Below are positions 7,295-28,305 of a stretch of DNA of 64,000 bases, piece after piece. The position numbers and the translations under genes are program-made. Position 1 is the stretch's first letter; every line of letters starts with the position of its first letter. Source of the DNA: an uncultured Clostridia bacterium (lineage in GTDB: Bacteria > Bacillota > Clostridia > TANB77 > CAG-508); NCBI GenBank assembly GCA_934153805.1, contig CAKPFO010000002.1, positions 26,419 to 90,418 of the forward strand, in the 5' to 3' direction. The notes under the pieces are model-generated. The model searched no databases. It had not been told where the DNA came from and was given only the letters and a program-made list of their open reading frames with translations.

Positions 7295-7339
7295 GTTTTT
7301 CAATTATCTTTATAATCTATGAAAGGAATGTGATTTAAA

Positions 7340-7582
7340 ATGGATGAAAAAACAATGGTTAATGATATATTAGATGGTGTAAAAGCTAGTCTTACTACGT
7401 ATCAAGGTGTAATTTCTGAAGCTGAAAACATAAATTTAAGACAAACTATTCAACAAATTAGAAATAGTGATGAAAGTTTTCAATACGAGTTATTTAAAGT
7501 AGCTCAATCTAAAGGTTATTATAAACCTGCTCAACCAGCAACAGTAACAGAAATTCAAACAGTAAAAAACGAGTTGCAATAA
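7340..7582 (+). CDS. CotF-family (Coat F domain) spore coat protein
   Basis: 80 aa. MVNDILDGVKASLTTYQGVISEAENINLRQTIQQIRNSDESFQYELFKVAQSKGYY fits the Coat F pattern (L..ek....Y.....E..N..LR........h..l......GYY). RBS GAAAGGAA upstream. Confidence 0.6.
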   Translation: MDEKTMVNDILDGVKASLTTYQGVISEAENINLRQTIQQIRNSDESFQYELFKVAQSKGYYKPAQPATVTEIQTVKNELQ

Positions 7583-7642
7583 ACAAAAAACCAAGCATTT
7601 ATGCAGTGCATACTGCTAAATTGCTTGGTTTCTTGTTTTTTT
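7581..7642. terminator. Bidirectional rho-independent terminator between the cotF-like gene and the peptidase-LRR-dockerin gene
   Basis: AACCAAGCA (7589-7597) pairs with TGCTTGGTT (7622-7630). There is an inner GCAGT/ACTGC stem, an A-run on the left and a T-run on the right. Confidence 0.6.
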
Positions 7643-7648
7643 ATTATA

Positions 7649-10600
7649 TTATCTAGATAGTATTTTGTACAATTCATTTAAGTCATTGCTTCTTATTCTA
7701 TCATTGCCTTCGTCTAATACATCGGCTGCTTTTCTTTGTAGTTTATCAGTTATTTCATTTTTTCCTGACAAGTGGTTTATTAGTAACATTAAGTCTTTTG
7801 ACCTTACTCTTCCATCTCCATCTATATCACCTGAAATTACAATATAATATGTTTTTACTATATTATTAGCATTATCTTTTAATTCTATAGTGCTTCCTGT
7901 TCCAAGTTTATCTGTATTAGCTAATGTTTTTCCATTTTTATCTTTAGCTACTGTACTATATTTGGTATTTGGGAAATTAGCTTGTACTAATACATCTCCC
8001 ACTTTGTTGTTTTGACCGTTTAATGTTGTTATACATTCTTTGCCGTCTATTTGTTTTATAGGCATATTTGTATATACTTCACTTGCTTCACTTTTTATTG
8101 TACAGTACATATTGTATCTATAATCTCCACTACTAGCATACAATTTAGCTATTTTTATATTATCTCCATCAAAAATTTGTTTAGATATGTATCGTTGCCC
8201 TTCACTATCTTGTAGTATTGTTCCATTTTTTCCTGTTGAATAGTCTATATTTCCATTTTCATCTATTTCATATATACCTAGTCTTTTGTCATCTATATCA
8301 TCTTGTTCCATTGCTACTTGCATATATTGTGGCAACATTATTTTTTCATCTATAACAGTTAAGTCATTTACATCAAACTGACATATTATTTGCGTTTCTA
8401 AATTTCTATTATCTAATAGCTTACCTATATTGGCAATTTTTGATATATCCCATATGTCTAGCATTTTTATATTTTTATTATTTTCTAAACAGCTTATGTC
8501 TGTAATTTCAGTATTTCCTATATCTACACTTTCTAATTTTGGCAAATCTTTTAACGGTGAAATATCTCGTACAGAGCAACCATTTAAAAATACTTCTGCC
8601 AAATTAGAGTTGTTTTTTAGTGCCTGTATATCAGCTATTTTTTTCGAATTGTATACATATAAACTTTTTAAATTTTGTAAATTTCCTATTTCTGTAATAT
8701 CTTCTACATCTGAATAATTGATATTCACTTCATTTAAATTATATAGCTTTGATATTCCAGTTATGTCTACCACTTTTTCTCCTATGGTAATATCTTCTAT
8801 TTCATCAATTCTATTTATGTTTACAACCATTTTTAATAAATCTTTGCTTTTATACAAAATTGAATCTTTATACTCTAAATCAGCTTGTGCTGTTCTAGCA
8901 TATACAGTATCATAAAATCTATCTTCCTTGCATAGTATAGTTACAGTTTCATCTTTTCCATATATTTGTGGTTCATAATTTAATGTATAACCTTTGTATT
9001 CAATTGCTATAGTTTGTCCTTTAGTTAAATTTTGTACATCTTGCACTTTTACTTTTGTATAGTCAGTTATCTCTTGAAGTCCTCCATCTAAATATTGATA
9101 ATAAACTTTTAATGTATCTTTATTGAATTTATCTCCTTCTGTATATATCTCGTCACTTAACACTTTCAATCCTAAAATATCTAACTTACTTACTACATTG
9201 CAATTTATTTTGTATTCAGTTCCTTTAAATATTCCATTTTCTATTGTTATTACGGCTTCTAAAGTTCCTAGTGTATGTGGCTCTATCTCTATTAATCCAT
9301 TATTATAATCAATTGTACAATTTTTAGTAGTTATACTTGTTTTATCTACATACCTATTTTTATTTAATGTTTTAAATAAATTTGGAAGTTCAAATTCAGT
9401 TTTTACATTTAGTTGTATTTGTTTATTTATCTCTATTTTTTGATTTTTTGCTGACTCTGTATATTTTAAATACTTATTATCTATATTTGTTATTCCGTTG
9501 TCATCTGCATAAACTTCATACAATCTTCCTTTATGTGATAGGGCTAGATTATTTATTTTATTTTTATTAATTGATAGTATACTTAAACTTTCAAGATTAG
9601 ATAAACTAGATATATCTTGTATTTTATTGTTATTCATATATAATATCCATAATTTTTTCAAATTACTTAATACTTCGATATTAGCTATATTATTATTATC
9701 TAAGTACAATTCTGACACATTAATTAGTTTTTCTAAAAAGTTTATATCTTCTAATTCACATTTTTCCATATACAATTTTGTAATATTAGATAATTCTTTT
9801 ATTCCGTCTGTATTCGTTAATTTATTACTGTTCATATAAACAATGCTTAAATTTGTTAAATTTTGCATAAAATTCAAATCTGTCAATCCACAATCATTCA
9901 TTGATAAATATTTTAATTGTGTTAAATTTTCTACTCCTGTAACATTTTTATTTCCGTCAATATATAAGCCTTCTATATTTGTAAGTTCACTTACATCTTT
10001 TATATTAGTATTATTTATATATAAATATCTAATACTATTATTCTTTATATACTGAAGTTGTGAATCATCTATTGGGTTATCAGATAAATCCAAATTATAT
10101 CCATTAAAATCTTCTGCAAAATTCTCTAAATTTGAAATATTACAATTTGCAACTTTTAGTGAAGTTCCATTTGTAGGTATCAATATAGGATCTATATTTT
10201 TATTGCCTGATAAATCTAAATCCAAATTAGGTATAGTACATAAATTCCAAGCATCTACTATATTATTATTTCTTAATTCGATATTACCAATTTTTAGCTT
10301 TTGTAATATTGGTATAATAGTATCATCCAAGTTACAATCACTTAAATTTATTAAATCTATTTCTCCTGGCTCTAATTTTTCTAATCCTGTTAGATTAGTA
10401 TTTCCTGATAAATCTAATTCATATCCATATTTAGTTTTTATATTTTTTAACTCTGATACATCAGTTAGACTATTATTATTTAATTTTAATAATAACAATC
10501 CTGTTTTATTTTTTGCACATTCTACACTAGATATATTATTATATCCCAAATTTAACATATATATTTTTTCTAAATTTATTATAGCTGTTGCATCTGTAAT

Positions 10601-12007
10601 ATTATTATGTTCTAATTCCAATTCTCTTAACTTTGTCATCGTTGCTATTGCACTAACATCTGTTATGCTATTATTGTTTAACTTTAACTCTGTCAATCCT
10701 ACAAAATTTTCTAAACCTGAAATACTAGATATTCCTTTGTTTGATAAATCTAGTTCCTCCCATTGGTTTAATACTATTTTTGATAATTCTAGCATATGTG
10801 AGTTGTCATTATATGAGATTATTTCATTTCTAAAAATTTCCTTTAGTGCCAAATACAAGTTTTCATCTTCGAATTTTATATTTTTGGTATTCTTTTCTTC
10901 TGTTGCATTTATTACTCCTGAAATTTCTGTTTCTATATAATAATCTTCATATGAAACATAGAAAAATCCTTTATCTCCCCAACTTTCTCCCCATGAGTTT
11001 ACACATATATATGCTCCATCACTTTTAGGTCTATTATTTTCAGGAAAATTTTCTTTAGAATAATTGTCATCCCAGCCAATAATATCTATAGCATGCAGTT
11101 TATCCCCTGGTATATCCTCATATTTTTTAGTAGAAAACAAAGTATGTGTTTTACTGTCATATACATCTGCATGACCTGGATTTTCTACTACTGCATACAA
11201 AGCTCCATTTTCCATTATTTGTTTCTTCACTTTATTACGGAAAAGAGATAATTCTTCTTGTGTATATTGTTTCTTTTCCTTATCAATTGTAGGGAAATCT
11301 ATTACATCTTCTACATATGCCTCTATATTGCGCGACATCAAATATTCATATTGTTCATCTTCATATACCTCATCATATGGTACTTCACTTTCTAATACCG
11401 GTCCATAATTTTTCATAAGATATCTTGCAACACGTTGAAAAGACCCTCCTGAATGAAGCTTTCTTCCATCTTGTATAAACTCATCTGACATTACATAATC
11501 TACATGTAATTCTGAAAGATCCTTCTCTATGCCTTTTAATGCTAAATTTGTTTCTATAGTTTTTAAGCTTGCAAAATTCCAACAATTTCCATAACTTTTT
11601 TGATCTCTAATTGGAATATTTATCACATCACGTAAATCATATGAACTTGGAATACTGCTTGTACTTCTTTCATTATTAGTAGCACTTACAATTGTTCTAG
11701 ATTTTCTTGATGTATTTTTATTGGTTTCTTCATACAAGCTGTCTAAAGGTATGTCATACTTTCTTGGTATAACCTCTACTTTTGCTTTTTCTTCATCACT
11801 TAAAGCTAAATATGCTTTATACGCTTCACTATATTCTTTTTCATTCTCATCTTGGTTATTCTGTTCTACACTGCCTGTTTGTTTTATAGCATACTCATTT
11901 TTTTGTGTTGATTCTTCTGTTTGTGCATTTATTGGTATACTTCCTAAAACTGTTGTACATAACATTATTAGTATTATGATGTTAGCTAATATTCTTTTTA
12001 TTTTCAT
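7649..12007 (-). CDS. Secreted papain-like (C1 family) cysteine peptidase fused to two leucine-rich-repeat blocks, Ig-like spacers and a C-terminal type-I-like dockerin
   Basis: Signal peptide MKIKRILANIIILIMLCTTVLGSIPINAQ. Catalytic Cys in QKSYGNCWNFASL (Cys142, nt 11582-11584), His in LHAIDIIGWDD, Asn/Trp box in VNSWGESWGDKGFFYVSYE. About 22-aa LRRs follow (LDLSNKGISSISGLENFVGLTELKLNNNSITDVSAI...). The C-terminus GDIDGDGRVRSKDLMLLINHL...AADVLDEGNDRIRSNDLNELYKIL is a duplicated Ca-binding dockerin segment (about 7652-7846). RBS GAAGGGG. Confidence 0.85.
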   Translation of the reverse strand: MKIKRILANIIILIMLCTTVLGSIPINAQTEESTQKNEYAIKQTGSVEQNNQDENEKEYSEAYKAYLALSDEEKAKVEVIPRKYDIPLDSLYEETNKNTSRKSRTIVSATNNERSTSSIPSSYDLRDVINIPIRDQKSYGNCWNFASLKTIETNLALKGIEKDLSELHVDYVMSDEFIQDGRKLHSGGSFQRVARYLMKNYGPVLESEVPYDEVYEDEQYEYLMSRNIEAYVEDVIDFPTIDKEKKQYTQEELSLFRNKVKKQIMENGALYAVVENPGHADVYDSKTHTLFSTKKYEDIPGDKLHAIDIIGWDDNYSKENFPENNRPKSDGAYICVNSWGESWGDKGFFYVSYEDYYIETEISGVINATEEKNTKNIKFEDENLYLALKEIFRNEIISYNDNSHMLELSKIVLNQWEELDLSNKGISSISGLENFVGLTELKLNNNSITDVSAIATMTKLRELELEHNNITDATAIINLEKIYMLNLGYNNISSVECAKNKTGLLLLKLNNNSLTDVSELKNIKTKYGYELDLSGNTNLTGLEKLEPGEIDLINLSDCNLDDTIIPILQKLKIGNIELRNNNIVDAWNLCTIPNLDLDLSGNKNIDPILIPTNGTSLKVANCNISNLENFAEDFNGYNLDLSDNPIDDSQLQYIKNNSIRYLYINNTNIKDVSELTNIEGLYIDGNKNVTGVENLTQLKYLSMNDCGLTDLNFMQNLTNLSIVYMNSNKLTNTDGIKELSNITKLYMEKCELEDINFLEKLINVSELYLDNNNIANIEVLSNLKKLWILYMNNNKIQDISSLSNLESLSILSINKNKINNLALSHKGRLYEVYADDNGITNIDNKYLKYTESAKNQKIEINKQIQLNVKTEFELPNLFKTLNKNRYVDKTSITTKNCTIDYNNGLIEIEPHTLGTLEAVITIENGIFKGTEYKINCNVVSKLDILGLKVLSDEIYTEGDKFNKDTLKVYYQYLDGGLQEITDYTKVKVQDVQNLTKGQTIAIEYKGYTLNYEPQIYGKDETVTILCKEDRFYDTVYARTAQADLEYKDSILYKSKDLLKMVVNINRIDEIEDITIGEKVVDITGISKLYNLNEVNINYSDVEDITEIGNLQNLKSLYVYNSKKIADIQALKNNSNLAEVFLNGCSVRDISPLKDLPKLESVDIGNTEITDISCLENNKNIKMLDIWDISKIANIGKLLDNRNLETQIICQFDVNDLTVIDEKIMLPQYMQVAMEQDDIDDKRLGIYEIDENGNIDYSTGKNGTILQDSEGQRYISKQIFDGDNIKIAKLYASSGDYRYNMYCTIKSEASEVYTNMPIKQIDGKECITTLNGQNNKVGDVLVQANFPNTKYSTVAKDKNGKTLANTDKLGTGSTIELKDNANNIVKTYYIVISGDIDGDGRVRSKDLMLLINHLSGKNEITDKLQRKAADVLDEGNDRIRSNDLNELYKILSR

Positions 12008-12164
12008 TTTTGCAACCCCTTCATTTTCCCTTTTTATCCTTATATTATATATTATAATTAAAGAAAATATATTTCGTCAATGTCTATTTTCTACTGACTT
12101 ATACGGTTTTGCTCTTTGTATTTACGGAAGTTTCTCTTTTTTCTTTAATATTAAATTTATATTA

Positions 12165-12197
12165 CAAAAAAACACATCTTAATTGATGTGTTTTTTG
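12165..12197 (-). terminator. Rho-independent terminator downstream of the cohesin-LPQTG gene
   Basis: ACACATC (12172-12178) / GATGTGT (12185-12191) stem flanked by A- and T-runs. Confidence 0.55.
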
Positions 12198-12218
12198 TAA
12201 ATATTATATTTTCTTTTA

Positions 12219-13124
12219 TTATTTTATATTCAAATTTCTATATTTTATAAATGTTACTACGGCAACAGACATTACAAATATAATTGCTATTATCATTCCA
12301 AAGGCTTCCCCTCCTGTTTGTGGTAATCTTCCTGTGCTTTGGGTATTTTCTTTTTTTCCGTTATTGTTTGTATTTGATGTAGTATTTGTTCCATTTACTT
12401 TATTTGCTCCTGGTACTGTGTTTGTATTTGGTGTTGTATTTGTTCCTGGTACTGTGTTTGTATCTGGCATTGTATTTGTTCCTGGCACTGTGTTTGTATC
12501 TGGTGTTGTATTTGTTCCCGGTACTGTATTTGTATCTGGTGTTGTATTTGTTCCCGGTACTGTGTTTGTATCTGGTGTTGTATTTGTTCCTGGTATTGTG
12601 TTTGTATCTGGTACTGTACCTCCACCTGTACTTGCATTTTCAATGGTAAGGTCTATTGATAATTCATTTGTCCCATTCATTTCTATTGCATTATATGCAT
12701 CTGAACAATCTATATCTCTAATTTTAAAATTAGATTTATTACTGCTTGGTATTGCTTTTAATTTAAATCTTACTTGTAAAACATCTCCTGAAGGCATATC
12801 TGTTAATCTATCTACTATAAACTTTTTAGTAGTTACATCGTACATTGGGTTTCCCCAAGAATTTAAATTATCTATAGCTATATATTCAAATATATTTTCA
12901 TCATATACTAATTGCCCTGCAGCTATATTAATTCCTGTGCTACCATTAATTGATGTTAGACTTAATTTAACAGTTACTGTGTCTCCTATATTATATTTTG
13001 TAGTAGAATCTACTTGTTCTAATTTCATTGTTCCTGTTGGATCTACTGCATTACTAATATTTGTTACTGTTAATATTAATAACATTAATACGCTAACCAT
13101 TACTATTTTAAATACATTTCTCAT
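12219..13124 (-). CDS. Sortase-anchored (LPQTG) cell-wall protein with one cohesin-like module and a Thr/Pro/Asn-rich stalk
   Basis: Start moved to ATG 13124 (MRNVFKIVMVSVLMLLIL, RBS GAGGAGG 7 nt upstream) instead of the track start at 13163. The module at about 12639-13031, ...YNIGDTVTVKLSLTSINGSTGINIAAGQLVYDENIFEYI...GDVLQVRFKLKAIPS..., matches the cohesin pattern (G.tV.V.v......gi......l.YD...le). Next comes a (PDTNTVPGTNTT)n stalk. The C-terminal LPQTG (12312-12326) plus hydrophobic helix plus KYRNLNIK is a classical sorting signal. Confidence 0.75.
   Translation of the reverse strand: MRNVFKIVMVSVLMLLILTVTNISNAVDPTGTMKLEQVDSTTKYNIGDTVTVKLSLTSINGSTGINIAAGQLVYDENIFEYIAIDNLNSWGNPMYDVTTKKFIVDRLTDMPSGDVLQVRFKLKAIPSSNKSNFKIRDIDCSDAYNAIEMNGTNELSIDLTIENASTGGGTVPDTNTIPGTNTTPDTNTVPGTNTTPDTNTVPGTNTTPDTNTVPGTNTMPDTNTVPGTNTTPNTNTVPGANKVNGTNTTSNTNNNGKKENTQSTGRLPQTGGEAFGMIIAIIFVMSVAVVTFIKYRNLNIK
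12398..12618. repeat. About six tandem copies of a 36-bp unit encoding the PDTNTVPGTNTT stalk
   Basis: The unit tgtatttgttcctggtactgtgtttgtatctggtgt recurs head to tail with point differences. This explains the spurious repeat-frame ORFs 12386-12649(+) and 12395-12643(-). Confidence 0.85.
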
Positions 13125-13260
13125 TTGTTTTCCTCCTCGCATAAATCTATATAAATTATACATGTTTATTTATAATTATGCAAGTGAAATTTTTAACATT
13201 TTTGTCACTTTTTGTGTTTTTTATTATATGGATACAATTATATTAAAACATTTAATTTAA

Positions 13261-13294
13261 AAGGCTACCGAAAATTAATTTTTTCGATAACCTT
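13261..13294 (-). terminator. Probable terminator after the 4998-aa gene
   Basis: AAGGCTACCGAAAA / TTTTCGATAACCTT imperfect stem directly 3' of the stop at 13309. The trailing T-run on the minus strand is short. Confidence 0.45.
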
Positions 13295-13308
13295 TCATCT
13301 TTTATTGT

Positions 13309-16300
13309 CTAGTTTATGGTGCTGCTAACATAAATTTGTTTTGCTTTATTTACATCCAATGTCTTTATTTCACCGTCATCATTTATATCTGCTGCCAAAT
13401 AATATGCTCCTGTTAAGATATTAGTACCTATTCTATGTTGTTTAATTTTATTTATATCTAATGTCTTTACTTGTCCATTTCCTGTTATGTCACCTATTAC
13501 TGATATTTCTTTTTCTATTTGCTCTGTTCCCTTTGTTGCTACAATCTTCATACCAGTTCCAACAAGGCTTGTATTACTTACTGCATTTCCATTTTTGTCG
13601 TATACAACCATTGTTCCGTTAGATTCCATATTTGCTAAGAAGTCTGCAACCGTTGTATTACTATTAACTCTTTCTACATAGTCATCTGAAACTCTATATG
13701 TATCAGATTTTAGGTATAATGGTGTGCTTATGTCTCCAGAGCTACTTGCTGCTGCATATAGTAAGCATAATTCCAACGATGTTGACGATGTTGTTTGTTT
13801 TACTAGATTACTTCCAGCAATTACAGTTGCATCTTTAACATATTTATCTCCATAAATAGTTGCTACATCAACTTTTACTTCTTGTGTATCTTTTATGCTA
13901 TTTTTTCCACTTGGAACTTGTTCTTCTTGTATTGAAATTACAAAGTCTGTTACATTTGGAATATCTAATCCTCTTAAAACTATCTGCCCATTAGCATCTA
14001 TATTCTTACTAATTGCATATCCATTTATTGTAACTTTATATTTAGCATTTGTATCAGTAATCATATTTCCTGTATCATTGTCCATTACATTAATCTTCAA
14101 AGAATATTTATTCTTTTCTTTCTTACTTTCAAAAGTAATTCTTACTGTATCTGTAGCTGGATCATAGACTGCTCCTACTCCATACGCATTTGTTATTGTT
14201 ATAGTTCCACTATTAGTGTCTCTACTTAATTCTACATATGTAGTATTATTGTTTATTTCATAACCACTTCCTGCTAGAGTATTGCTTATATCTATTCTTA
14301 TATCTCCTGCACCATTTACTGGTGTTATTGTTGGTATATATCCAGTAGCATCTGTACTTTGATCTGTTATTGCTAATGCTGATGCTCCTATAGTTTGTGT
14401 TATGTTTATATCAAACATTGCATTTTCTATTGGTATAGATGTATCATCTCTATCAACATTGATTAGTTCTATTCTATATGGAGGTACTCCTATATCTTTT
14501 TGTTTGTCTGTAATTTTTATTTTTGCATATTTTTCTTTTTGTTCCATTACTTGTAGTCCTGTACTTTCCATTATATTTTTTATATTTCCAGTTGATGTAT
14601 CTGATTGTACATATATTGTTCTTACTGTGCTATCTAATTCATATCCACTTGGTGCTTTTGTTTCCTCTAAAGTATACGCAATAGGCGAACTACTAAATAC
14701 CTTATCTAATGCAAAGTATACAATACCATTGTTATCAGATTCTTTAAGCATTTCTTCTCCTGTTGCTGTATTTGTTAGTTTGTATTCTGCACCTTGTATT
14801 TTTATTTTTTCATTGTTTTCATCAACTTTTTCAAATGCAAGTCCTATTTTTTCTAATCTATTTTCTATAGTTATATCAATAGATTTGGTATTATTATCAA
14901 TATTCCATAATGAGTCATCATTGTTACTTACAACCTTTTGTAGTGAATCATTTAATTTTGTTACTTCATATGTGTACTTACCATTATTAGCACTTATTTC
15001 ATATCCACTTGGTGTTAGTGCTTCTATTACATCAATTTTTATCGTTCCACTACCAACCAAATTATTTATTACTATTTTTCCATTTGTGTCTGTTTTACCT
15101 GTTTTATATATTGCATTTCCTACTTCAGGTACAACTTTTACTTGGAATAATACATCTTTTAATTTTATATTATGGTCGTTTTCATCAACTTTTGTTATTG
15201 TAATTGAATATGGTTTTACATACTCTTCTAATTTGTTTGTAACTTTAATATGCATACTATTTTCTGTTGAGTCTATTATTTCTGCATTTTTTTCTCCACT
15301 TGTCATGACAATAGTTTGGATTTTTCCTTGTTCATTAATGTATGCATCTATAATTATAGGATCGATTGCTTGATATTCATATATTTTAGTTTCTTCAAGC
15401 ATTAACAATACACTCTTATCGGCATATTTATTATCTAGTTTTAATTCTATTCTACCTGCATCGTCTGTTTTAAATTTTCCTAATTCTTCAACATTTGCTG
15501 TTCCTTTTTCTTGAATTTTGACTGTAAATTCCATTCCTAAAATAGCATTACCACTTTCATCTACTTTGTCCACATTTAGATAAAGTACAGGATCGTTAGT
15601 TATCGTTATTTCAATTTCTTTTGTGTATTTATTATAAGTTACCTTTACACCATTAGAATCTACATTTTCTACTTTTAAAAGAATATCATCTGGATCTGTT
15701 TTATCTAAAGTTACATCAAATGCAACTTCAATTGGTGAATTTAGCTTATCTTCTTTATATCCACTTGGTACAGCAGTTTCTGTTATACTTAGTTTGACAT
15801 TTCCTTCATATTTTAACTTTTTAAAGTCTATTACACCACTATCAACTATATGTGTTCCTACTACATCATCTTGTGTTGTTAAATTTGTTAACGATTCTAC
15901 GTTATTTGAATTATTTTCAATGTTTATATCAAATATTGCTCCGTTAACTCTTAAGCCTGTATTAGAATCTTCTTTTGCAACTTTAATTGTATAGAAATCA
16001 TTATTTCCATATCCTATAATTGCATTCATTGTTAATCCTGTATATCCTGTTCCTGTTAATAGTCTTGATGATATTCCATTTAGGCTAGTAATATTACCCT
16101 TACTATCAAATTCTACAACTAAACGAACTTTTCCTATTTGGTTGAATCCTGTTGCAGAAGTTGGTGTTGTTATTGTATATATTACTTTCTTGCCCGCAAA
16201 GTCATAGGTTTTTCCTAAATCTATTGTTGTAATTCCATCTATACTTGTATATTCATTTCCACCATTATAGCTGATTTCATTAGTAGTTGATGCTAATATT

Positions 16301-22300: not shown

Positions 22301-25300
22301 GTAAATAATAACTCTCTATTTGTATATGTGTCTTGCATTGTTATTGTTACTTTTCCATTAGTTACATTTGTAGATTTAGTTTCTACTATTTTATTTGAAT
22401 TTGTTACATCTGTAATTGTAAGTGATATTGGACCATCTAGATTTTCATCTGTATCTGAGTCTTTTAAGTTTACAGTTACACTTAATGGATTATGTAACTC
22501 TTTATTTAATAAACCTACATATAATGTGTTTCCACCTATGCTGTTATATTTTCCAATGTCATAAGTGTTATATTCATAACCTATTCTTTGGTCTTCAACA
22601 TACCAAAACCATCTATAATAGTATGAATAATACCTTTTTATAGTTTGTATACCTGTTGCTACTCCATCTGCACTAATTCCTCCTACTGCAATTTCATCCA
22701 TGTCTAGCCCTGCTCCTATAGTTCCAGTTGCTACATTTCCATCAGCATCAAATTCTACTATCACTTTAGCATCGTTTGAATTTCTTTTGTAATTTAATTC
22801 TGCTACATTCTCTTTTATAGTAAACTCTACTGTTTTATTTTTATAATCTTTATATAATGCTACTTTATGTGTTCCATCTGTGTCATTTGGAGAATCTATT
22901 AATGTTGCTTTTGCAGTTTCATATATCTCTGTATCTGCCACTCCACCATTAACCAATCTTGCTTCTATATCTATATCTAATGCACTTATAAGTTTAAATC
23001 CATTTGATATAGATGTTCCATCTATATTAAAGAATCTTAAAAATCTTTCTGCACCAGTATATGTTGTATTTATAGTCTTGTTTTCATAAGTTGAACTACA
23101 GTTACAAATATCAGTATGATAATGCCAATATTCATTTTTATAATAGTTATATGAGTAATCCCAACTTCCATATCTTCTATTATATATATTAAAGCTTACT
23201 GTTGGTTCTGCAGGTGCTGGGGTATCCCCACCAGTACTTCCTCCGCCTGTACTTCCTCCACCTGTGCTTCCTCCACTCGTGCTTCCACCAGGTACTACAA
23301 TTGGTGTAGGGTCTTCTGCTGTAATTTTAACTTTTACTATTGTTCTTTTATTTCCACTTGCATCTGTCGTTACTTCTATATTTATCTCTATATTTTTAGT
23401 AGATGTTGTTTCTGGATCATATATAATATTGCCAGATGCATCTAATGTTAATGTTAATATCTTTGTATCACTGTCTAAATTACATCCTATAGCTGCTTCC
23501 TTTTCTGTTAATATTACAGTTGTTTTGTCTTTCTTTAATATTAAATCTGTAATTTCTGTTCTTGAATCAATTACAGTGTTTAATGAACTTATACTTTGTT
23601 CAGCATATGGTCTTATTTCTATATCATATTTAGAACCTGATACTACATTTCCATCTTTATCTACTTTTGTTATATCAATATCATATACGCTTCCTGCAGA
23701 TGCTGATATATTAGTATCTATATAGTTTGTTACCTTTAATTCTACTGTAACTTCATTATTTGTTGTATCATAATTTACTAATTTTTGCTCTAATATCTCA
23801 TTTCCTTGTAAATATGATTCTCCCAAATATCTTACTATTCCTGATGTTTTATCAAATCTTATTTCCATTTTTATTGGATTACTTGGTAATTCATATGGTG
23901 AAACAGTTGCCTTTTCTGTAATTGTATATTCATAGCTTTTTCCTTCAGTCGCACTAAATGGTGCTTTTACTGCAACATATCCATTAGTGTCTGTTACGAC
24001 TGTTTGTTTATAATTAGTGCTAGGCTCTGTTATTTCAAATTCAACACCAGCTAAGTTTAGAGTTCCATCTTTATTAGTTGCAGCCATTTTAAATATAACA
24101 TTTGTATATTCTATTGATTGAAGTACATCTTTTACTTGTACATCTCCGGTTGAATCTACATTAACATTTAATGTATCTATATTATTTAAATATGTTTTTA
24201 CTAAATCTCCATCTGTATTTCTTGTTAATTTTACAGTTTTTACTGTTGAATCTATCTTATATCCATTTATTGAATCTGTTTGTTGAATTTCTACTTCTAT
24301 TGTATCATCATTTGGTAAAGTAATTTCTATTTTTCCATTAGAATCTGTTTTATAAGTATCTATAGATACCATAGATCCTACTATCTTTACTTTATATTGT
24401 ACATTTGCTAATCCAGTATTATCTAATGAGCTTATAGTGTTTAAAACTAATTTATTTGCTCCCGCAAATGTAGAAGGTTTTATTTTTATATCTACATTTG
24501 CAGTGTATTTATAATAATCAGCATCATTATCTTCTGTTTTGTAAATATTTATCTTATCATCTGAAGATGTTTCATTTGCTTCAATTATTTTTTTATTTCT
24601 GTCATAGCTTATAGAAAAGATTATATTTGAAGTAATGATATTTGCATCATCTGGGACAATTTTATATAAAACATCACCTTCTGCATCTGTTGTTACTCCT
24701 GTAATCTCAAGAAGTCCATTGCTATCAGTCTTTCCTCCTCCTATAACTTGTCCTGTATATAAATTATATACTTTTAATCCTATATTATCTACTTTTGTTA
24801 GACTGCTATTGCTTAACATTGTTCTTATTTTTATTGCATTTGTAGATTGTTTTTCTTCATTAGTTAAAGTTGCATATAAAGTTTTTGTAGCTAAATCAAA
24901 TTTACTAAATACTCCTGACATTGATGCCATATTATATGTTATAGTTTCATCATCTTTTCTTTCTATAGTAATATATCTATCTAATTTTTCTACAGCATAT
25001 CCAGCAGGTGCATTTATGTGTTTAAATGTTAACTTTAATAATCCTTTTCCATATAATCCATCAATTTTTAAGTTTCCAGATGCATCTGTTTTTGCACTTG
25101 CAGTTGTATATTGTAAACCTTTTCCATCATCAACTTCTATTTGGTATTCACTATCTTGTAAATCTGCCTTTGTTGCTATATCTTTTACATTTACGCTAAC
25201 ACTAAAGCTTGTATTGTCTATTCTCGCGTTTTTTACTGTTATTTCAGGTTTTGAAGTATCTGGAATAGTCACATTGCTATTAGCGGCAAATAATTTTTGT

Positions 25301-28300
25301 TCTATCTTACTTACATTTCCATCAGCGTCAAATGTTACTTTTAAGTTTATAGAGCCAACATTTGAGTACATTGAATTTACAGTTTCTTGTGTAAGCACAT
25401 ATTCTTTAGATGTATTTACTCCTCCTATTACACTAGTCAAGGTTACTTCTCCATTTACAGTAGTTCCTCTTGTAAGTTCTATTCCACCTTGTTTTAAAAC
25501 AAACTCTGTATTTGATATTAAATTAGAAGATATTGCATCTTTATTAACAATCTTTAAATCGAATTTTTTTCTTTCAACTGGAACCTTAACAGTTAATGTT
25601 TGATTTCCATTACTCAAGTTAGTTACCACATCACTAGATGATGATGTTGTATCTACTACTATACTATATGCACTAGTATCTATACTTACATTTTTATATG
25701 GTGCTACATCATAGCCAACTGCAGCAGAAATATTATCTATTTTTATCTTCTTTACATCTTTTAGTCTTGCTTTTTCTATTGTTATTTTTCCATTCTTATC
25801 TGTTGTTTTATTTTTTGCAATTTCAACAGTTGTTCCATCTGCATATTCACCTATTACATCATATTTTACATCTTTTACTGTTGCATTCGTATTACTATCT
25901 ACTGCTTGAATAATTAACTCATAAGTTGGTTCTATATAGTATTCGCCAACTATTCTTTCTTCTGTTTCTATTCCAGAATTATTTTCAGCAATTACATGTA
26001 AATATATTTTTTTGTCCCAATCTCTAGCTGGTATTGTTAATGTAGTATTAAATATTTTTCCACTATTTATTGTTACTTCTGTAAAATCACTTGCTTGTGC
26101 TGGTGCTTCACTTGTTGTAAATGCATATTTGTATTTCTTCAATCCGCTCTCATTGTCTAAAATTTTTACATCTATATTTATATCTTCATTATATGTTTTC
26201 TTACTTGTAGGGTCTATTATTATTATTGGTGCTGTAGTATCATCGGTTACAGTTATGGTTTGTTTAAATGCATTAGAAGATATTACTGTTCCTGAAACAT
26301 TTTTTGAAACAATTAACTGAATATCGTATTTTCCTACTCCATATGCTGGATTTGCACTTGTTGAAAAATCTACTATAGGAGTACTTCCTGTATATACATC
26401 TGTTTTTACTCCTCCAGCATTTGTTTTTGTAACCTTCCATTCATATGTTAAACTTGCTCCAGATGGATCATAAGACTCATCAACTATGTTTAATCTATCA
26501 TATATAGATATTTCTTTTTCTAGAACTTTAAATTGTGCTATTGGTTTTGCGCTAGTAACTCCTGTTGTTACATTTTTAATTGCTTCAGTTTGAACTCCTT
26601 GATAATCTGTTACAGTTAATTTAATATAATAGTCTGTATTTGCATCCAAAGTAACATCTACTTGTTGTCCTATTCCTGTACTTGGTATTTCTACCCAGCT
26701 TGAATCTCCTACTTTTTTGTATTCCCATTTTTCGGCTTTTATACCATTATTTGCAACTTGATTTGCATATTCGCTAGATGTCTTTTCTATATCTAAGTCA
26801 TATGAGGTACTATTTAATGTTAAATTTTGTCCACTTAAATTCATATTAAATGAAGATATTGGTCTTCTATGTGCATAAACTTCTGTTACTAGTTTTCCCT
26901 CACAGTAAATGCTATATTTTCCAACATTATCAAATGAATTTATTAAATCATTACTATACATACTATCTTGAGGATATTGTCCTTGTGGATTTTCATAATA
27001 GTTATAGTCATGTTCTACTTTCCATACTCCGTTTGGATATTGTGTAGTAGGAGTTGTTACAACTCCTGAAATTGGTTGTGTTATTTTTACATTAACAGCT
27101 TCCCCTGCTATTATTGTATTAGATACTTTCCCCTTAACTATCTTTTTCAAATAATTTGCTGTAGCTTCTACAGCATCACTAGATGAATTTTCAATAAATA
27201 TACCATTATTATTATTTTGTTGAATTATGTTATTTATTTGATCATTATTAGCACTAGTTCCCCAACCTATATAATATACATTATTGTTCATTAATTTAGT
27301 AATAACTTCTGTTAATTCACTAGAATCTGAAAACTCTTCATTTTCTTCATCTTCTACATTTATTAATATTCTAGTTGACCCATTTCTCCAAGTTGGAGCT
27401 TGCAATACTTCTGTAAATTTCTTTGTTACTTCTACTTTTAAGTCTATATTAGTTAATGTAAATTGTCCTATATTGTTACATCCATGAGAATAGTGGTCTG
27501 AAAAGAATCCATATCCACTTCCATATGTTTGACCTTTTGGCATTGTGTATACGTATTCGCTAGTAAGTCCTCCACCATTAATTCTGATTTCTGTGTCTGT
27601 TACCTTTACAGATAAGTCTCCGCTTTGAGCTATACTAAGGCTTTGAACAAGCCATATATCAGTATTTCTTTGGAAAGATGCATAATTATTTTTATTATAT
27701 ATAAAGTGCCATAAACCTGCATTAGCCCCAATGTTGAATGCTCCTGAATTGTTAAAGCTTATCATATAACCTTCTATATATCCATTTGCATTTTGTTGAA
27801 CTCTTACAAGCATTCCTGCAGCATTAAAGCTATCACCAAAGTTTATAGAATATCCAAAATTAAAATTTTGTTCTTCATTTCCTTCTGGTATAATCCACAT
27901 TGCTTGCTTTCCTGCATTGCTTGTATTACCTTGCATAGAAATATTTTTACCATTATTGGTTGGTGTTATTGTTCCTATGCTAGATGTCTTGCTTTCTGTC
28001 CACTTCAATGTTTCTTGGCTTTCTACATTTTTAGTTTCTATTGCATCAATATTTAGTTTTCCAGCATCTATATCAGCCTGTGTCATGATATTTTGCCTGA
28101 TAAGTTCTGCTTTCAAGTCTTCCTCAAAATTTGCAACATTCGCTTGAGTCTTTGATTTAGTTAAAATTATATCTACATTTGGTGTTTGAGATATTTGAAT
28201 TTTTACTTCTTGTGTTGCAAAAACATAAGCACTAATACATGCAAGTATCAAAACTATACTTGTGCAAATTATCTTAATTATTGCTCTCTTTTCCAATCTT

Positions 28301-28305
28301 TTCAT
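13309..28305 (-). CDS. 4998-aa secreted giant adhesin: signal peptide, N-terminal globular region, dozens of SpaA/Cna-B-like beta-sandwich repeats, internal Gly/Ser/Thr linker, C-terminal dockerin
   Basis: Uninterrupted 15-kb ORF with RBS AAAGGAG. Signal MKRLEKRAIIKIICTSIVLILACISAYVFA. It holds reiterated ~90-100-aa units with ...TD.NG...I..L......Y.I.E...P.GY... and ...V.FD..G.I... signatures. GGSTSGGSTGGGSTGGGSTGG linker at about 23226-23290. C-terminal GDITGNGQVKTLDINKIKQH...AADINDDGEIKTLDVNKAKQ (about 13312-13510) is dockerin-like. No LPXTG motif or C-terminal TM helix. Confidence 0.9.
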   Translation of the reverse strand: MKRLEKRAIIKIICTSIVLILACISAYVFATQEVKIQISQTPNVDIILTKSKTQANVANFEEDLKAELIRQNIMTQADIDAGKLNIDAIETKNVESQETLKWTESKTSSIGTITPTNNGKNISMQGNTSNAGKQAMWIIPEGNEEQNFNFGYSINFGDSFNAAGMLVRVQQNANGYIEGYMISFNNSGAFNIGANAGLWHFIYNKNNYASFQRNTDIWLVQSLSIAQSGDLSVKVTDTEIRINGGGLTSEYVYTMPKGQTYGSGYGFFSDHYSHGCNNIGQFTLTNIDLKVEVTKKFTEVLQAPTWRNGSTRILINVEDEENEEFSDSSELTEVITKLMNNNVYYIGWGTSANNDQINNIIQQNNNNGIFIENSSSDAVEATANYLKKIVKGKVSNTIIAGEAVNVKITQPISGVVTTPTTQYPNGVWKVEHDYNYYENPQGQYPQDSMYSNDLINSFDNVGKYSIYCEGKLVTEVYAHRRPISSFNMNLSGQNLTLNSTSYDLDIEKTSSEYANQVANNGIKAEKWEYKKVGDSSWVEIPSTGIGQQVDVTLDANTDYYIKLTVTDYQGVQTEAIKNVTTGVTSAKPIAQFKVLEKEISIYDRLNIVDESYDPSGASLTYEWKVTKTNAGGVKTDVYTGSTPIVDFSTSANPAYGVGKYDIQLIVSKNVSGTVISSNAFKQTITVTDDTTAPIIIIDPTSKKTYNEDINIDVKILDNESGLKKYKYAFTTSEAPAQASDFTEVTINSGKIFNTTLTIPARDWDKKIYLHVIAENNSGIETEERIVGEYYIEPTYELIIQAVDSNTNATVKDVKYDVIGEYADGTTVEIAKNKTTDKNGKITIEKARLKDVKKIKIDNISAAVGYDVAPYKNVSIDTSAYSIVVDTTSSSSDVVTNLSNGNQTLTVKVPVERKKFDLKIVNKDAISSNLISNTEFVLKQGGIELTRGTTVNGEVTLTSVIGGVNTSKEYVLTQETVNSMYSNVGSINLKVTFDADGNVSKIEQKLFAANSNVTIPDTSKPEITVKNARIDNTSFSVSVNVKDIATKADLQDSEYQIEVDDGKGLQYTTASAKTDASGNLKIDGLYGKGLLKLTFKHINAPAGYAVEKLDRYITIERKDDETITYNMASMSGVFSKFDLATKTLYATLTNEEKQSTNAIKIRTMLSNSSLTKVDNIGLKVYNLYTGQVIGGGKTDSNGLLEITGVTTDAEGDVLYKIVPDDANIITSNIIFSISYDRNKKIIEANETSSDDKINIYKTEDNDADYYKYTANVDIKIKPSTFAGANKLVLNTISSLDNTGLANVQYKVKIVGSMVSIDTYKTDSNGKIEITLPNDDTIEVEIQQTDSINGYKIDSTVKTVKLTRNTDGDLVKTYLNNIDTLNVNVDSTGDVQVKDVLQSIEYTNVIFKMAATNKDGTLNLAGVEFEITEPSTNYKQTVVTDTNGYVAVKAPFSATEGKSYEYTITEKATVSPYELPSNPIKMEIRFDKTSGIVRYLGESYLQGNEILEQKLVNYDTTNNEVTVELKVTNYIDTNISASAGSVYDIDITKVDKDGNVVSGSKYDIEIRPYAEQSISSLNTVIDSRTEITDLILKKDKTTVILTEKEAAIGCNLDSDTKILTLTLDASGNIIYDPETTSTKNIEINIEVTTDASGNKRTIVKVKITAEDPTPIVVPGGSTSGGSTGGGSTGGGSTGGDTPAPAEPTVSFNIYNRRYGSWDYSYNYYKNEYWHYHTDICNCSSTYENKTINTTYTGAERFLRFFNIDGTSISNGFKLISALDIDIEARLVNGGVADTEIYETAKATLIDSPNDTDGTHKVALYKDYKNKTVEFTIKENVAELNYKRNSNDAKVIVEFDADGNVATGTIGAGLDMDEIAVGGISADGVATGIQTIKRYYSYYYRWFWYVEDQRIGYEYNTYDIGKYNSIGGNTLYVGLLNKELHNPLSVTVNLKDSDTDENLDGPISLTITDVTNSNKIVETKSTNVTNGKVTITMQDTYTNRELLFTLFQTSGATNGSKNYIDNSANQIQFKAKLDDEGNIIEFTEVSTPSNAICDGASNTDIEYTIYNDMKYNFAINLTKQDEAGAGLKGVRVKETTSIIDNATTGAMTQVFTGGSALTDNNGNVKIKIDLPETPTYNYYSKAIEIKLDEYYVPDNYIAQKDLKVRVLFDKSGKVKDASLVSGAGDKVLLITKQNNVSSTDVEKSSIDLTMVNKLIEDKPYIDIVNEDVDDENVKLEGTKYKVTVWDEDDYVKNTLVTNEIKYSAVTDTNGNTSILFDNAHALRTMIFQIQEIQSSNSYKKNDDIILKVVYDEEGKMVSLPQIINPQTLINAKGNTINVVTIVGNPVGSEQLQLKIVNELEPKFNININRKDSDGNILTGKSFKAVVKEDDGSGVETIVETRMSKVTSTGYTIGIKTDTTSKNLTFAIYEETGDEFTLRGTAKIEFDRYAKVKTADIEGKYIEESNSSANAGNDYMNLTIVAEIFRIKIKVEDTTLSGLDLSGYKFEVLNSKNERNDTTTGTNSTGSVINFSGEVYKGETITYAIKQEQSPINYNDVSAVSLTVEFDDNGDIASCTPATIPDVYDLITTVRDTSDKSNMEIKMYTTSALRNLVQVEVTDEADDTQKIGTAVYNVSIDGASKGLLAVADGDGEIDLGSYKNYKEKTVLFNIEQTNVDSTYMINDKPIQISVTYDDEGLITDARIIATNGYVEIDTANTIGTGTLTLKDANKKKTEMKIIAHNSESDTVLIDGATFKIEEVGKTTIYSDTKTTGTNGEATLYVGPYYNDLDVTYKISNSTMNREYDKVADAQFTVHYDSNGKIVSVNMSEDVKKYINITIPTTDTPDLEIKIKVRPLFTIGVDAVDKDSGTRLIGARYEISQVTNTTNKDTVITQTIGTVHAAIGKPEAGKAIEYQIVEKGAPLGYKEINKNNVIGKIKVTYDTDGQIVPGSQTVTAGYDYIDINSTSDKEAKFDLDIKVKYEEVEEFKVIIENYNILNNSQKIQADFNAYLTSGQSASMTTDSTDGIGVLNFGKLTKSNPILTISQSNVQGNYLTIGQIKIRLNIDVNGKITAITTLGGSGVATENVAYTIDSTGSYTIKITVKNNPLTTIKLRNISDGNSEDKLQSTHELSANNISTMQLVTTDGEATATLESVPKSQTIRYTLTQTSVDRGYKLNKNIVLVVHYDSNGIIDSAPYTLTGSSYADSSVVSVKSWNAYQVELEIKNKQIFEIYLKAEDAYDSSIPLTGVAVRIKETTYSNTQLTLTTDSTGVAYSPLGTTYAGNTLIYDIDVQNNLTGYDKDSRNISSLIRIPFDSNGNINASGISSSNSQVEVEYKTGLAIEIKVKYIPVIQMEVTRRNTATNAPITGRRMQITSTAMRNNVNQSTDGNGKISVTDAGRINVATPVVYNISENSLSGYNAIEALDPFTVTVMYDANGYISGYTSSLTENITLGGIGTRKLDIELGSGAKSSVGIVNSDSYIGTERITGTYEITSSKGEKITINAIKGTTSAIEKLGKYYPGEEIEYTIHQTTAQIGYQKINDVKFKVEYKADGTIGNVTSTNTDILTIGTTNQTASKTIANINLEIHSKPILMVKINAIDKQYNSGVEGLQFKIKDEKSGVETTLPYKTDDNGSVTIPVYEAYENTHVTYTVTQIETKGGYKAMSSFSVIVEYGAYGTIVETGTYVINTSDVTLTEQYSEKLYTNTKLRGIELNTKVESEMGIGIEKKDVNGNIIKGVEYTISSKDISTSDVNGITKATNDAGEIVQYFGNLPINKVMEYTISEVQAPAGYRKVEDTVIRVYFDNSGRVISYTPVKVPSNVNVEVATSDLLKMEATKEVVHIKLNIVNDDRVTFKIVNLQNNTKEPIKDSEITMSVEDVSGIIKNATVNTNIDGIATIENVDASGTIKFYFNQTNVPTGISRNTVNSGYISINKRTDVYQITFNDSTDNLEYEIDSETGIVTVYLYNDNNLTLNIIDVDAETFDPALNATHIVKAQYGEKTDDEDTILASTTNEISYNGGNEYTSIDGITTIDLGKTYDFAGKKVIYTITTPTSATGFNQIGKVRLVVEFDSKGNITSLNGISSRLLTGTGYTGLTMNAIIGYGNNDFYTIKVAKEDSNTGLRVNGAIFDINIENNSNNVESLTNLTTQDDVVGTHIVDSGVIDFKKLKYEGNVKLSITETAVPSGYKEDKLNSPIEVAFDVTLDKTDPDDILLKVENVDSNGVKVTYNKYTKEIEITITNDPVLYLNVDKVDESGNAILGMEFTVKIQEKGTANVEELGKFKTDDAGRIELKLDNKYADKSVLLMLEETKIYEYQAIDPIIIDAYINEQGKIQTIVMTSGEKNAEIIDSTENSMHIKVTNKLEEYVKPYSITITKVDENDHNIKLKDVLFQVKVVPEVGNAIYKTGKTDTNGKIVINNLVGSGTIKIDVIEALTPSGYEISANNGKYTYEVTKLNDSLQKVVSNNDDSLWNIDNNTKSIDITIENRLEKIGLAFEKVDENNEKIKIQGAEYKLTNTATGEEMLKESDNNGIVYFALDKVFSSSPIAYTLEETKAPSGYELDSTVRTIYVQSDTSTGNIKNIMESTGLQVMEQKEKYAKIKITDKQKDIGVPPYRIELINVDRDDTSIPIENAMFDINITQTIGASALAITDQSTDATGYIPTITPVNGAGDIRIDISNTLAGSGYEINNNTTYVELSRDTNSGTITITNAYGVGAVYDPATDTVRITFESKKEKNKYSLKINVMDNDTGNMITDTNAKYKVTINGYAISKNIDANGQIVLRGLDIPNVTDFVISIQEEQVPSGKNSIKDTQEVKVDVATIYGDKYVKDATVIAGSNLVKQTTSSTSLELCLLYAAASSSGDISTPLYLKSDTYRVSDDYVERVNSNTTVADFLANMESNGTMVVYDKNGNAVSNTSLVGTGMKIVATKGTEQIEKEISVIGDITGNGQVKTLDINKIKQHRIGTNILTGAYYLAADINDDGEIKTLDVNKAKQIYVSSTIN

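Follow-up and report, generated by a model that had tools for sequence, protein, structure and literature searches.

How can an adhesin of about 5000 residues be held at the surface of a bacterial cell when its sequence ends in no wall anchor of its own? The question is raised by a locus of an uncultured Clostridia bacterium (GTDB lineage TANB77; CAG-508), contained in a stretch of 64,000 nucleotides of contig CAKPFO010000002.1 (positions 26,419 to 90,418; assembly GCA_934153805.1) that was analysed as a whole and is referred to below as the window. Three co-oriented genes on the minus strand make up the locus, at the positions where an earlier, sequence-only reading of the same DNA (the initial annotation) had placed them: a giant adhesin gene (13309-28305, an open reading frame (ORF) of 4998 amino acids), an anchor gene encoding a cohesin protein (12219-13124, 301 amino acids; called as an ORF of 314 amino acids at 12219-13163) and a peptidase gene (7649-12007, an ORF of 1452 amino acids). 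All features of these genes described below lie on the same strand. Taken together, the domain content, the structure models and the gene neighbourhoods favour reading the locus as a non-cellulosomal cohesin-dockerin surface-display cassette, in which the giant would be mounted on a wall-linked cohesin and the protease would be a second cargo; the probability of this reading is put at about 0.72. To our knowledge, non-cellulosomal cohesin-dockerin pairs have long been catalogued, but what they carry, and to what end, has hardly ever been defined.

The anchor protein and its cohesin

From its N-terminus the anchor protein consists of a signal peptide (residues 1-26), one cohesin, a stalk rich in proline, threonine and asparagine, an LPQTG motif, a hydrophobic segment and a basic tail. 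Its 301-residue reading is the correct one, since a GAGGAGG ribosome-binding site lies 7 nucleotides ahead of the ATG at 13124 and the upstream ATG falls inside the -10 region of the promoter. The stalk (12401-12612) is a 36-bp tandem repeat (12 amino acids, PDTNTVPGTNTT) of 5.9 copies with 92% matches, and presumably spans the wall. Behind it, the cell-wall sorting signal (12222-12326) comprises LPQTG at 12312-12326 (residues 267-271), some 20 hydrophobic residues and the tail KYRNLNIK; written out as LPQTG-GEAFGMIIAIIFVMSVAVVTFI-KYRNLNIK, it has the LPXTG motif, the hydrophobic segment and the positively charged tail by which such signals are recognized.

The cohesin module (12618-13046) matched the Pfam family PF00963 when searched in isolation (29.1 bits, E 1.3e-6, gathering cut-off 24.1), the match covering positions 4-64 of the 139 in the profile. 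The same search with the full 314-residue ORF gave no match, nor did a single-sequence phmmer search of the module against the PDB. Among its relatives the assignment is firmer: PF00963 was matched by 77 of the 106 aligned family members (best E 2.6e-15), and a search with the family profile matched the solved cohesins 1g1k, 2vn5 and 2w1n/2ozn/2jh2, including the non-cellulosomal ones of Clostridium perfringens. The AlphaFold2 model of the module (143 residues; predicted local distance difference test score (pLDDT) 94.4, predicted template-modelling score (pTM) 0.88) is a nine-strand β sandwich, and when it was compared with the PDB by Foldseek, ranks 1-43 were all occupied by cohesins, with template-modelling (TM) scores up to 0.78-0.82. 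The best matches were again non-cellulosomal cohesins of C. perfringens, 2vo8 (TM 0.78) followed by 2jh2 and 2w1n, at 14-19% sequence identity. The initial annotation had described the protein as signal peptide, cohesin, stalk and LPQTG, and had named a generic immunoglobulin (Ig)/CARDB fold of the module at 12639-13031 as an outcome that would refute it; the peptides it quoted are present, and the hidden Markov model (HMM), AlphaFold2 and Foldseek results agree with its description, the nine strands and the 43 best matches speaking for a cohesin. By profile and by model, then, the module is identified as a true cohesin, for which dockerin binding is predicted.

The C-terminus of the giant adhesin

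The giant begins with an N-terminal signal peptide, whose hydrophobic stretch is long at about 22 residues, and continues with an unannotated head of about 800 residues, a stalk of SpaA/prealbumin-like repeats, an X-module and a dockerin. The Pfam SpaA match reached 177 bits, and an iterated repeat HMM gave 47 matches at a lax threshold (29 significant), recurring about every 120 residues over residues 800-4810. A motif scan found a C-terminal LPXTG motif or membrane anchor neither in the giant nor in the peptidase, in line with what had been claimed for both proteins.

In place of such an anchor, a small β module, the X-module (13495-13728, approximately residues 4860-4937, with the conserved pattern NTTV...DKNG...VGTGM), stands directly before the dockerin (13321-13494, residues 4938-4995). 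The same X-module, as judged by alignment, precedes the dockerin of the peptidase and occurs in the adaptor proteins P0003, P0004 and P0009 described below. The dockerin is formed by two Ca-loop/helix segments, DITGNGQVKTLDINKIKQH and DINDDGEIKTLDVNKAKQI, that are about 60% identical to each other; both Ca loops (DITGNGQVKTLD and DINDDGEIKTLD) are canonical and both have TL at positions 10/11. Fragments of the C-terminus scored 27.8-30.8 bits against Dockerin_1, above the gathering cut-off of 22.9. In the AlphaFold2 model of the last 139 residues (pLDDT 84.6), β strands occupy positions 1-77 and helices positions 89-99, 107-113 and 123-138. The X-module had no convincing match in the PDB, and the dockerin superimposed on the type I dockerins 2ccl_B and 1ohz_B of Clostridium thermocellum with target-normalized TM scores of 0.82-0.88, a root-mean-square deviation of 1.2 Å and a probability of 1.00, the E-values of these fold matches being weak owing to the shortness of the domain. 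The proposal that the proteins on both sides of the cohesin end in dockerins is thus borne out by Dockerin_1 scores above the cut-off for both isolated modules and, for the giant, by the fold match with type I dockerins. Profiles and model indicate an X-module and a type-I-like dockerin at the C-terminus of the giant.

As far as its sequence tells, the giant fits the plan of a fibrillar adhesin, namely a long stalk array with a surface anchor, the anchor being a dockerin and not LPXTG. It shares with LPXTG-bearing fibrillar adhesins with SpaA/Cna-B stalks the signal peptide, the distal head, the long SpaA stalk and an attachment device at the C-terminus; it differs from them in that the device is a dockerin, and attachment would be non-covalent and exchangeable. 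Another giant of the window, at 46263-57894, has a C-terminal membrane anchor instead of a dockerin.

Conserved pairing of cargo and cohesin genes

Relatives of the cohesin were collected by searching 1.84 billion representative proteins with a profile (E<=1e-3), and their contigs were retrieved through exact-protein look-ups. The family amounts to 367 representative clusters, mostly of 200-300 residues with one N-terminal cohesin, and its members are for the most part built from a signal peptide, a single cohesin, a stalk of low complexity and an anchor. A sorting signal of the [LI]PxTG type is found in 81 of 151 family representatives, some others end in a membrane helix, and the Pfam family Gram_pos_anchor is matched by 7 of 106 members. 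A few members are adaptors with two (P0003), four (P0004) or three (P0009) cohesins that end in an X-module and a dockerin; in the contigs seen, none is linked to a carbohydrate-active enzyme (CAZyme). The family proteins that were looked up come from metagenome assemblies only and are absent from NCBI genomes; scans of GTDB species genomes and of JGI metagenomes returned no cohesin relatives, and word-indexed homologue searches gave two matches for the cohesin and one for the X-dockerin of the giant.

Eight contig sets extend upstream of a family cohesin gene, and in all of them the gene directly 5' of it ends in an X-dockerin. Besides the 4998-residue giant of the window, these neighbours are a 5238-residue SpaA giant that is 68% identical to it (L001), SpaA giants of 4976-4979 residues (L085-87), a transglutaminase-core protein of 1244 residues with a cohesin and an X-dockerin (L091/92), an X-dockerin tail (L093), a C1 peptidase of 661 residues followed by a cohesin protein of 258 residues with an IPYAG anchor (L096), and a peptidase with C1 domain, leucine-rich repeats (LRRs) and X-dockerin that is 40% identical to that of the window and whose cohesin gene starts 21 bp later (L097); in the eighth set (L090) the neighbour is visible as its last 30 residues only, which are the second segment of a dockerin. 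The eight sets stand for some seven lineages, whose cohesins share 20-41% identity from one lineage to another.

The partners also diverge together. The cohesin of the window is 65% identical to that of L001 and 35% identical to those of L085-87, the dockerins in the latter comparison being 62% identical. Cohesins that adjoin giants are 32-76% identical to one another and mostly 22-37% identical to cohesins with other cargo, the two ranges overlapping at the L085 end, and the dockerins of the giants share 60-76% identity. Both dockerin segments change jointly at positions 10/11, the putative specificity positions, which are TL/TL in the window and in L001 and AL/AL in L085. Such joint change, together with the co-divergence of the partners, is the pattern expected of a cognate pair able to bind in two orientations. 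On these comparisons the giant and the cohesin appear to form a conserved cognate gene pair of predicted binding partners.

An alternative would be that the dockerin-like tails are Ca2+-binding modules with a stabilising or secretory role, that the cohesin-like protein is unrelated to them, for instance an Ig-like protein that binds carbohydrate or a host ligand, and that their adjacency has no meaning for binding. The giant would then be released, or it would be held by its N-terminal hydrophobic segment, which at some 22 residues could be a signal anchor; it is also the case that many dockerin-like modules are present in genomes without a known partner. Against this explanation stands the adjacency of X-dockerin cargo and cohesin in eight of eight cases, even at 22-40% cohesin identity, compared with a background of 3 places hit by the dockerin HMM built here in 1.36 Mb of pcrA flanks from 80 related genomes. 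The specificity positions, moreover, shift jointly in both dockerin segments, and the fold matches are specifically to cohesins and dockerins with established mutual binding. This alternative is therefore regarded as very improbable, and the HMM E-values, fold matches and synteny place the observation of the modules itself far beyond chance.

Several further observations were made in the family. The 1244-residue protein of L091 (1037-4771, plus strand) has a transglutaminase core, an internal cohesin and a C-terminal X-dockerin, and lies directly upstream of a single-cohesin anchor gene. In a related metagenome-assembled genome (MAG), one reading frame of L040 (11785-13650, plus strand) contains a cohesin-like module, the motif 'VKTGD' with a hydrophobic segment, an X-module and a dockerin-like module, and may be either a hybrid of anchor and adaptor or two genes that lack an intervening stop codon. 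A motif of the form 'xKTG' before a membrane helix also ends the 2420-residue adhesin of the window (IKTGK) and could be a variant sorting motif of the clade. In L097 (340-420 and 2397-2401), a TAG falls exactly at the conserved tryptophan of the catalytic Cys-Trp motif and a frameshift occurs further on; reassignment of the stop codon was considered and rejected, as a TAG nonsense change with a frameshift fits a decaying gene or an assembly error. Two contigs, L082 and L088, both stem from the Logan sample SRR25400522, one carrying the exact 65-residue protein of the window and the other the cohesin P0007 (about 28% identical to that of the window), a weak hint that this organism, or a relative living alongside it, possesses additional single-cohesin anchors.

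Proposed attachment of the giant

These features point to the following arrangement. The 301-residue protein would be exported and its LPQTG motif linked covalently to peptidoglycan by a sortase, so that the stalk would hold the single type-I-like cohesin beyond the wall. The giant, which has no wall anchor, would be exported by way of a cleavable signal peptide, and its X-module and internally symmetric dockerin would plug into the cohesin in a Ca2+-dependent manner, as the behaviour of these domain families leads one to expect. Its C-terminus would then lie next to the cell, some 30 or more SpaA-like modules would project the head of about 800 residues far outward, and the dockerin would occupy the place where related fibrillar adhesins have LPXTG. 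A non-covalent link may well bear such a load, because the X-dockerin:cohesin complex of CttA and ScaE from Ruminococcus flavefaciens, likewise an adhesin-like protein and a sortase-anchored cohesin, bears 600-750 pN (PMC4266597).

The three genes are probably separate transcription units and no operon, to judge from their flanking sequences, since a terminator-like hairpin follows every one of them and promoter-like sites of their own precede the cohesin and peptidase genes. The hairpin after the stop codon of the giant (13259-13295, with a T-rich tail) has a folding energy of -19.5 kcal/mol (z -7.7; none of 200 shuffled sequences folds as well); those after the cohesin gene (12162-12200) and the peptidase gene (7590-7629), each with a T run, have -15.7 kcal/mol (z -5.3) and -19.1 kcal/mol (z -5.1), respectively. 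The promoter-like site of the cohesin gene (13155-13183, TTGCAT-17 nt-TATAAT) was recognized by eye and is absent from the list of the automatic scan; the motif is retained ahead of the cohesin orthologue in L083 and L084. That of the peptidase gene (12051-12080, TTGACG-18 nt-TATAAT) has 11 of 12 matches.

A number of points weigh against the proposed arrangement. With terminator-like hairpins between the genes, their co-expression is not guaranteed. The Pfam match of the cohesin extends over only the first half of the PF00963 profile, the whole giant scores 21.0 bits against Dockerin_1, slightly below the cut-off of 22.9, and just two of the five AlphaFold2 models of its X-dockerin are confident. 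The head of the giant (residues 1-800) has no significant Pfam or PDB sequence match, and its adhesive function is a guess. No sortase gene came up when most of the larger ORFs of the 64-kb window were scanned with Pfam and NCBIfam. Finally, the eight contig sets are in part dependent on each other, L001, L083 and the window belonging to a single lineage.

The dockerin-bearing peptidase

The third protein of the locus consists of a signal peptide, a pro-region, a Cwp84-like catalytic domain of the papain family (C1A), two blocks of internalin-like LRRs, an X-module and a dockerin. Its Peptidase_C1 domain (10946-11653, residues 119-354) clears the cut-off of 20.7 with 64.8 bits, and all four catalytic residues (Gln, Cys, His, Asn) are intact, as read from the motifs DQKSYGNCW, HAIDIIGW and NSWG of the translation. 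The best solved relative of the domain is Cwp84 of Clostridioides difficile (4ci7/4d59, E 2e-24). Pfam did not detect the lectin-like domain PF18560 of Cwp84-type enzymes; the catalytic domain is followed instead by the LRR region (8348-10810, approximately residues 400-1220), which is internalin-like and broken by a non-LRR segment (LRR_4, 122 bits in nine stretches; InlA-type LRR, E 3e-43, under the family cut-off). Among the 120 C1 homologues listed, about 10 carry Dockerin_1 and most carry PF18560. At the C-terminus (7664-8020), Dockerin_1 matches and alignments place an X-module at 7832-8020 and a dockerin at 7664-7831. The dockerin scored 28.4 bits in the whole protein and 32.8 bits when isolated (cut-off 22.9); its first segment, DIDGDGRVRSKD, is canonical and its second, DVLDEGNDRIRSND, has an insertion of two residues, so that one of the two duplicated loops is regular. 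From this architecture the peptidase is clearly, as far as sequence allows, a dockerin-bearing cargo of the same display system.

On which cohesin would it be displayed? The initial annotation had proposed that the giant and the protease share the intervening cohesin and perhaps compete for it, which would allow the cell to switch between or mix its cargoes. The peptidase gene is indeed the immediate 3' neighbour of the cohesin gene on the same strand, its product has the same arrangement of X-module and dockerin with no anchor of its own, and scanning the 64 kb in six frames with HMMs derived from the family alignments gave a single cohesin and two dockerins; a family-wide cohesin HMM also gave a single cohesin module, leaving no second cohesin in the window. 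A single cohesin is, furthermore, known to serve several such proteins, ScaE binding a number of group-4 dockerin proteins that include LRR proteins and peptidases (PMC2930009). The orthologous loci argue otherwise: the peptidase gene is absent from L083, L001 and L085, and in L083 the cohesin gene directly precedes the Coat_F gene pair found past the peptidase gene of the window. The cognate cargo in the family is the 5' and not the 3' neighbour, and the C1-dockerin peptidases of L096 and L097 each precede a single-cohesin gene of their own. The dockerins themselves differ, that of the peptidase being 34% identical to that of the giant and 29-36% identical to giant-type dockerins overall, with SK/SN against TL/TL at positions 10/11 and an atypical second loop; the search for other cohesins, for its part, covered 64 kb of the genome. 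Sharing of the cohesin by the two cargoes is accordingly judged unlikely, and the sequence comparisons tilt against competition for it as well. The peptidase instead appears to be a lineage-specific addition at this locus, and its dockerin looks like one of a different specificity type, for which reason another cohesin of the genome is the most likely docking partner suggested by the sequences; it might still cross-bind the cohesin of the window.

A second possibility concerns what the enzyme does: a Cwp84-like protease held by its dockerin, on this cohesin or on another one, could mature, trim or release surface proteins such as the giant or the anchor, the locus then comprising an adhesin, its anchor and their processing enzyme. 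In C. difficile, Cwp84 cleaves the S-layer precursor SlpA, and this enzyme is the nearest solved relative of a domain with all catalytic residues in place; dockerins are carried by about a twelfth of the listed homologues, most of all those listed having the lectin-like domain, and the gene adjoins the adhesin/anchor pair. The replacement of the lectin-like domain by LRRs points more to an external or host ligand, and the adhesin/anchor pair exists without the protease in L001, L083 and L085. A processing role is thus judged rather improbable, a little more so than the sharing of the cohesin.

For the display cassette as a whole, this leaves the anchor-plus-cargo proposal standing in one of its parts. 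The giant as cargo agrees with the sequence evidence, the pair being kept in L001 and L085-87 and an X-dockerin lying 5' in every set with upstream sequence; the placement of the protease on the same cohesin is disfavoured by its absence from orthologous loci, its different dockerin and its relatives with cohesins of their own. Nor is the description as a minimal system supported, as the family includes multi-cohesin X-dockerin adaptors and 64 kb of the genome is visible.

Comparison with known systems

By analogy, the closest functional counterpart is the ScaE-CttA pair of R. flavefaciens, the resemblance being one of function and not of family membership. In both systems a single-cohesin protein with LPXTG/sortase anchoring holds, or here would hold, proteins with an X-module and a dockerin, such as the substrate-binding, adhesin-like CttA. 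The group 4 dockerins that bind ScaE are internally symmetric and are found also on LRR, peptidase and transglutaminase-like proteins (PMC2930009, PMC3573020), and the cargo classes of the window and its relatives are similar: adhesin, cysteine peptidase, LRR and transglutaminase-like proteins. The transglutaminase protein of L091, in particular, parallels the transglutaminase-like proteins of R. flavefaciens with group 4b dockerins. The differences are equally plain. The window lacks CAZymes, carbohydrate-binding modules (CBMs) and scaffoldins of the ScaA/ScaB type, and the cargo is a 5000-residue SpaA fibre, not a CBM protein. The ScaE cohesin is outside the top 50 fold matches, the nearest being those of C. 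perfringens and type I/II cohesins, with the R. flavefaciens ScaB cohesin 5n5p at rank 6 (TM 0.61). Unlike in CttA, the dockerin is type-I-like and the X-module a small β module with no PDB match. Lastly, the sca cluster serves many cargoes, whereas a private anchor gene lies here directly downstream of each cargo gene.

The large secreted glycoside hydrolases of C. perfringens contain cohesin and dockerin modules within them, by which enzymes are joined together. Those of NanJ (GH33), NagJ (GH84C) and NagH resemble the present case in that cohesin and dockerin occur outside a cellulosome in a low-GC, gut-associated Firmicute; a small sortase-anchored cohesin and a fibrillar adhesin cargo are not known there. 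Cwp84 attaches to the cell through CWB2 cell-wall-binding repeats and has a lectin-like domain. It is comparable to the window peptidase as a secreted C1A protease with a C-terminal targeting module that gives, or in the peptidase would give, non-covalent attachment to the cell surface, and differs from it in that the latter has about 800 residues of internalin-like LRRs and an X-dockerin.

The amylosome of Ruminococcus bromii is a use of cohesin and dockerin for a purpose other than the breakdown of cellulose in a Firmicute of the human gut (PMC4611034), and its Sca5 cohesin 7urp is among the fold matches of the window cohesin. Unlike the GH13 amylases borne there on scaffoldins, the cargo here is an adhesin or a protease with no glycoside hydrolase. 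As the initial annotation had maintained, no glycoside hydrolase, CBM or multi-cohesin scaffoldin turned up when most of the larger window ORFs were scanned with Pfam and NCBIfam, nor did a carbohydrate esterase or polysaccharide lyase; by the ORFs scanned, the locus is neither a cellulosome nor an amylosome. The 'dockerin-type giant proteins' of Omnitrophota (bioRxiv 10.1101/2023.11.21.568195) were considered as relatives and set aside, their many internal dockerin/thrombospondin repeats and membrane anchor constituting a different architecture. In the open-access literature searched, 'fibrillar adhesin' and 'dockerin' appeared together only in a general review, and no text linked dockerins with TANB77/CAG-508. 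What is new, then, is the dockerin in place of LPXTG on a 5000-residue SpaA fibre, the private two-gene cassette with varied cargo, and the host clade.

Genomic setting and other genes of the window

The window has a GC content of about 29% (0.286) and a marked strand bias. The three genes, at 0.26-0.31, resemble the window, the lower value of the peptidase gene stemming from its LRR part; as an indication of recent transfer of the module, the comparison of the genes with the window is uninformative. The setting is chromosomal, with a PcrA/UvrD gene directly upstream of the giant and, further on, genes for an ABC-F ATPase, CorA, ZupT and an M18 aminopeptidase. At the level of PcrA, the window shares 86% identity with an 'uncultured Clostridiaceae' MAG, 75% with Clostridium sp. 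CAG:508 and 70% with a Candidatus Scatovivens MAG. CAG-508 is described as a major family of TANB77, an uncultured order of gut bacteria with reduced genomes (PMC11680825), and the PcrA identities make a source within or close to this clade probable.

In L002 and L003, the closest genomes by PcrA, a homologue of the window gene at 1-6753 follows within 1.3-1.9 kb after pcrA, preceded in L002 by one small ORF, and no giant/cohesin pair lies between the two. In L085 and L083 the pair adjoins genes for CoatF, an M23 peptidase, MecA, RadC and MreBCD. From these different neighbourhoods it follows that the cassette changes place, or is acquired and lost, within this clade. The gene at 1-6753 (minus strand) encodes a third giant SpaA-repeat protein, 2251 residues of which are inside the window before it runs off the edge; its homologues in L002 and L003 (44-50% identity) occupy the site of the giant/cohesin/peptidase block of the window. 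Looking up the exact protein, to see whether it ends in a dockerin, gave one contig of 1.2 kb, and the homologues extend past the ends of the flanks retrieved. Between it and the peptidase gene, at 7097-7582 (plus strand), are a gene for 65 residues and an 80-residue gene of the Coat_F family. The same pair also flanks cohesin or C1-dockerin genes in L083, L085 and L096, which makes it a useful synteny marker, and the Coat_F gene hints at a spore-forming organism.

Three further regions of the window deserve mention. The gene at 31116-32972 (plus strand, 618 residues) joins a Clp-type AAA+ region (residues 17-418, ClpA/ClpB-like) to a C-terminal part matching the end of FtsH (436-612), an unusual fusion in which every score is far under the equivalog cut-offs. 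At 46263-57894 (minus strand), ORFs of 1458 and 2420 residues overlap by 8 bp, with their junction near 53518-53545, and are read as one adhesin of about 3880 residues with SpaA, GLUG, MucBP and Cna_B domains ahead of its C-terminal membrane anchor. A frame shift at the A-run in ACGCGGAAAAATAG gives back the typical SpaA-repeat sequence RGKIVITNLYENEEYTLKETLAP; the break may be either a sequencing error or a homopolymer frameshift, possibly for phase variation. The gene at 58877-60259 (minus strand) encodes a secreted protein of 460 residues with the same Asn/Thr-rich stalk and LPQTG, no cohesin, and N-terminal domains without a Pfam match. From its sequence it is likely to be a second sortase substrate in the window, which suggests that sortase substrates are in use in this organism.

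Implications

To a specialist, the existence of non-cellulosomal cohesin-dockerin pairs is unsurprising; what comes as a surprise is a conserved, cargo-defined cassette by which an uncultured clade of the gut would tether giant adhesins. The locus presents a concrete and recurring pairing, an X-dockerin cargo followed by a sortase-anchored single cohesin, with a cargo unrelated to the breakdown of polysaccharides, and so makes the long-open question of what non-cellulosomal pairs do directly testable. The natural pairs, at 22-76% cohesin identity, provide a ready specificity matrix, and orthogonal cohesin-dockerin pairs are useful parts for protein engineering.

For fibrillar adhesins, the findings suggest a new mode of attachment by a non-covalent tether that may be force-resistant, exchangeable or releasable. 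Surface proteins of TANB77 have been linked to host immune responses (PMC11680825), which renders the way in which this clade builds its surface of practical interest. A wider proposal, put forward tentatively and at somewhat less than even odds, is that uncultured TANB77/CAG-508-like gut Clostridia with small genomes use cohesin and dockerin as a general modular display system, with two-gene cassettes in which a fibrillar adhesin, a Cwp84-like protease or a transglutaminase-like protein is paired with a co-evolving private socket, multi-cohesin X-dockerin adaptors that allow stacking, and docking in place of LPXTG. If that is true, the largest surface structures of these bacteria would be mounted, and perhaps exchanged or shed, by specificity-coded non-covalent docking.

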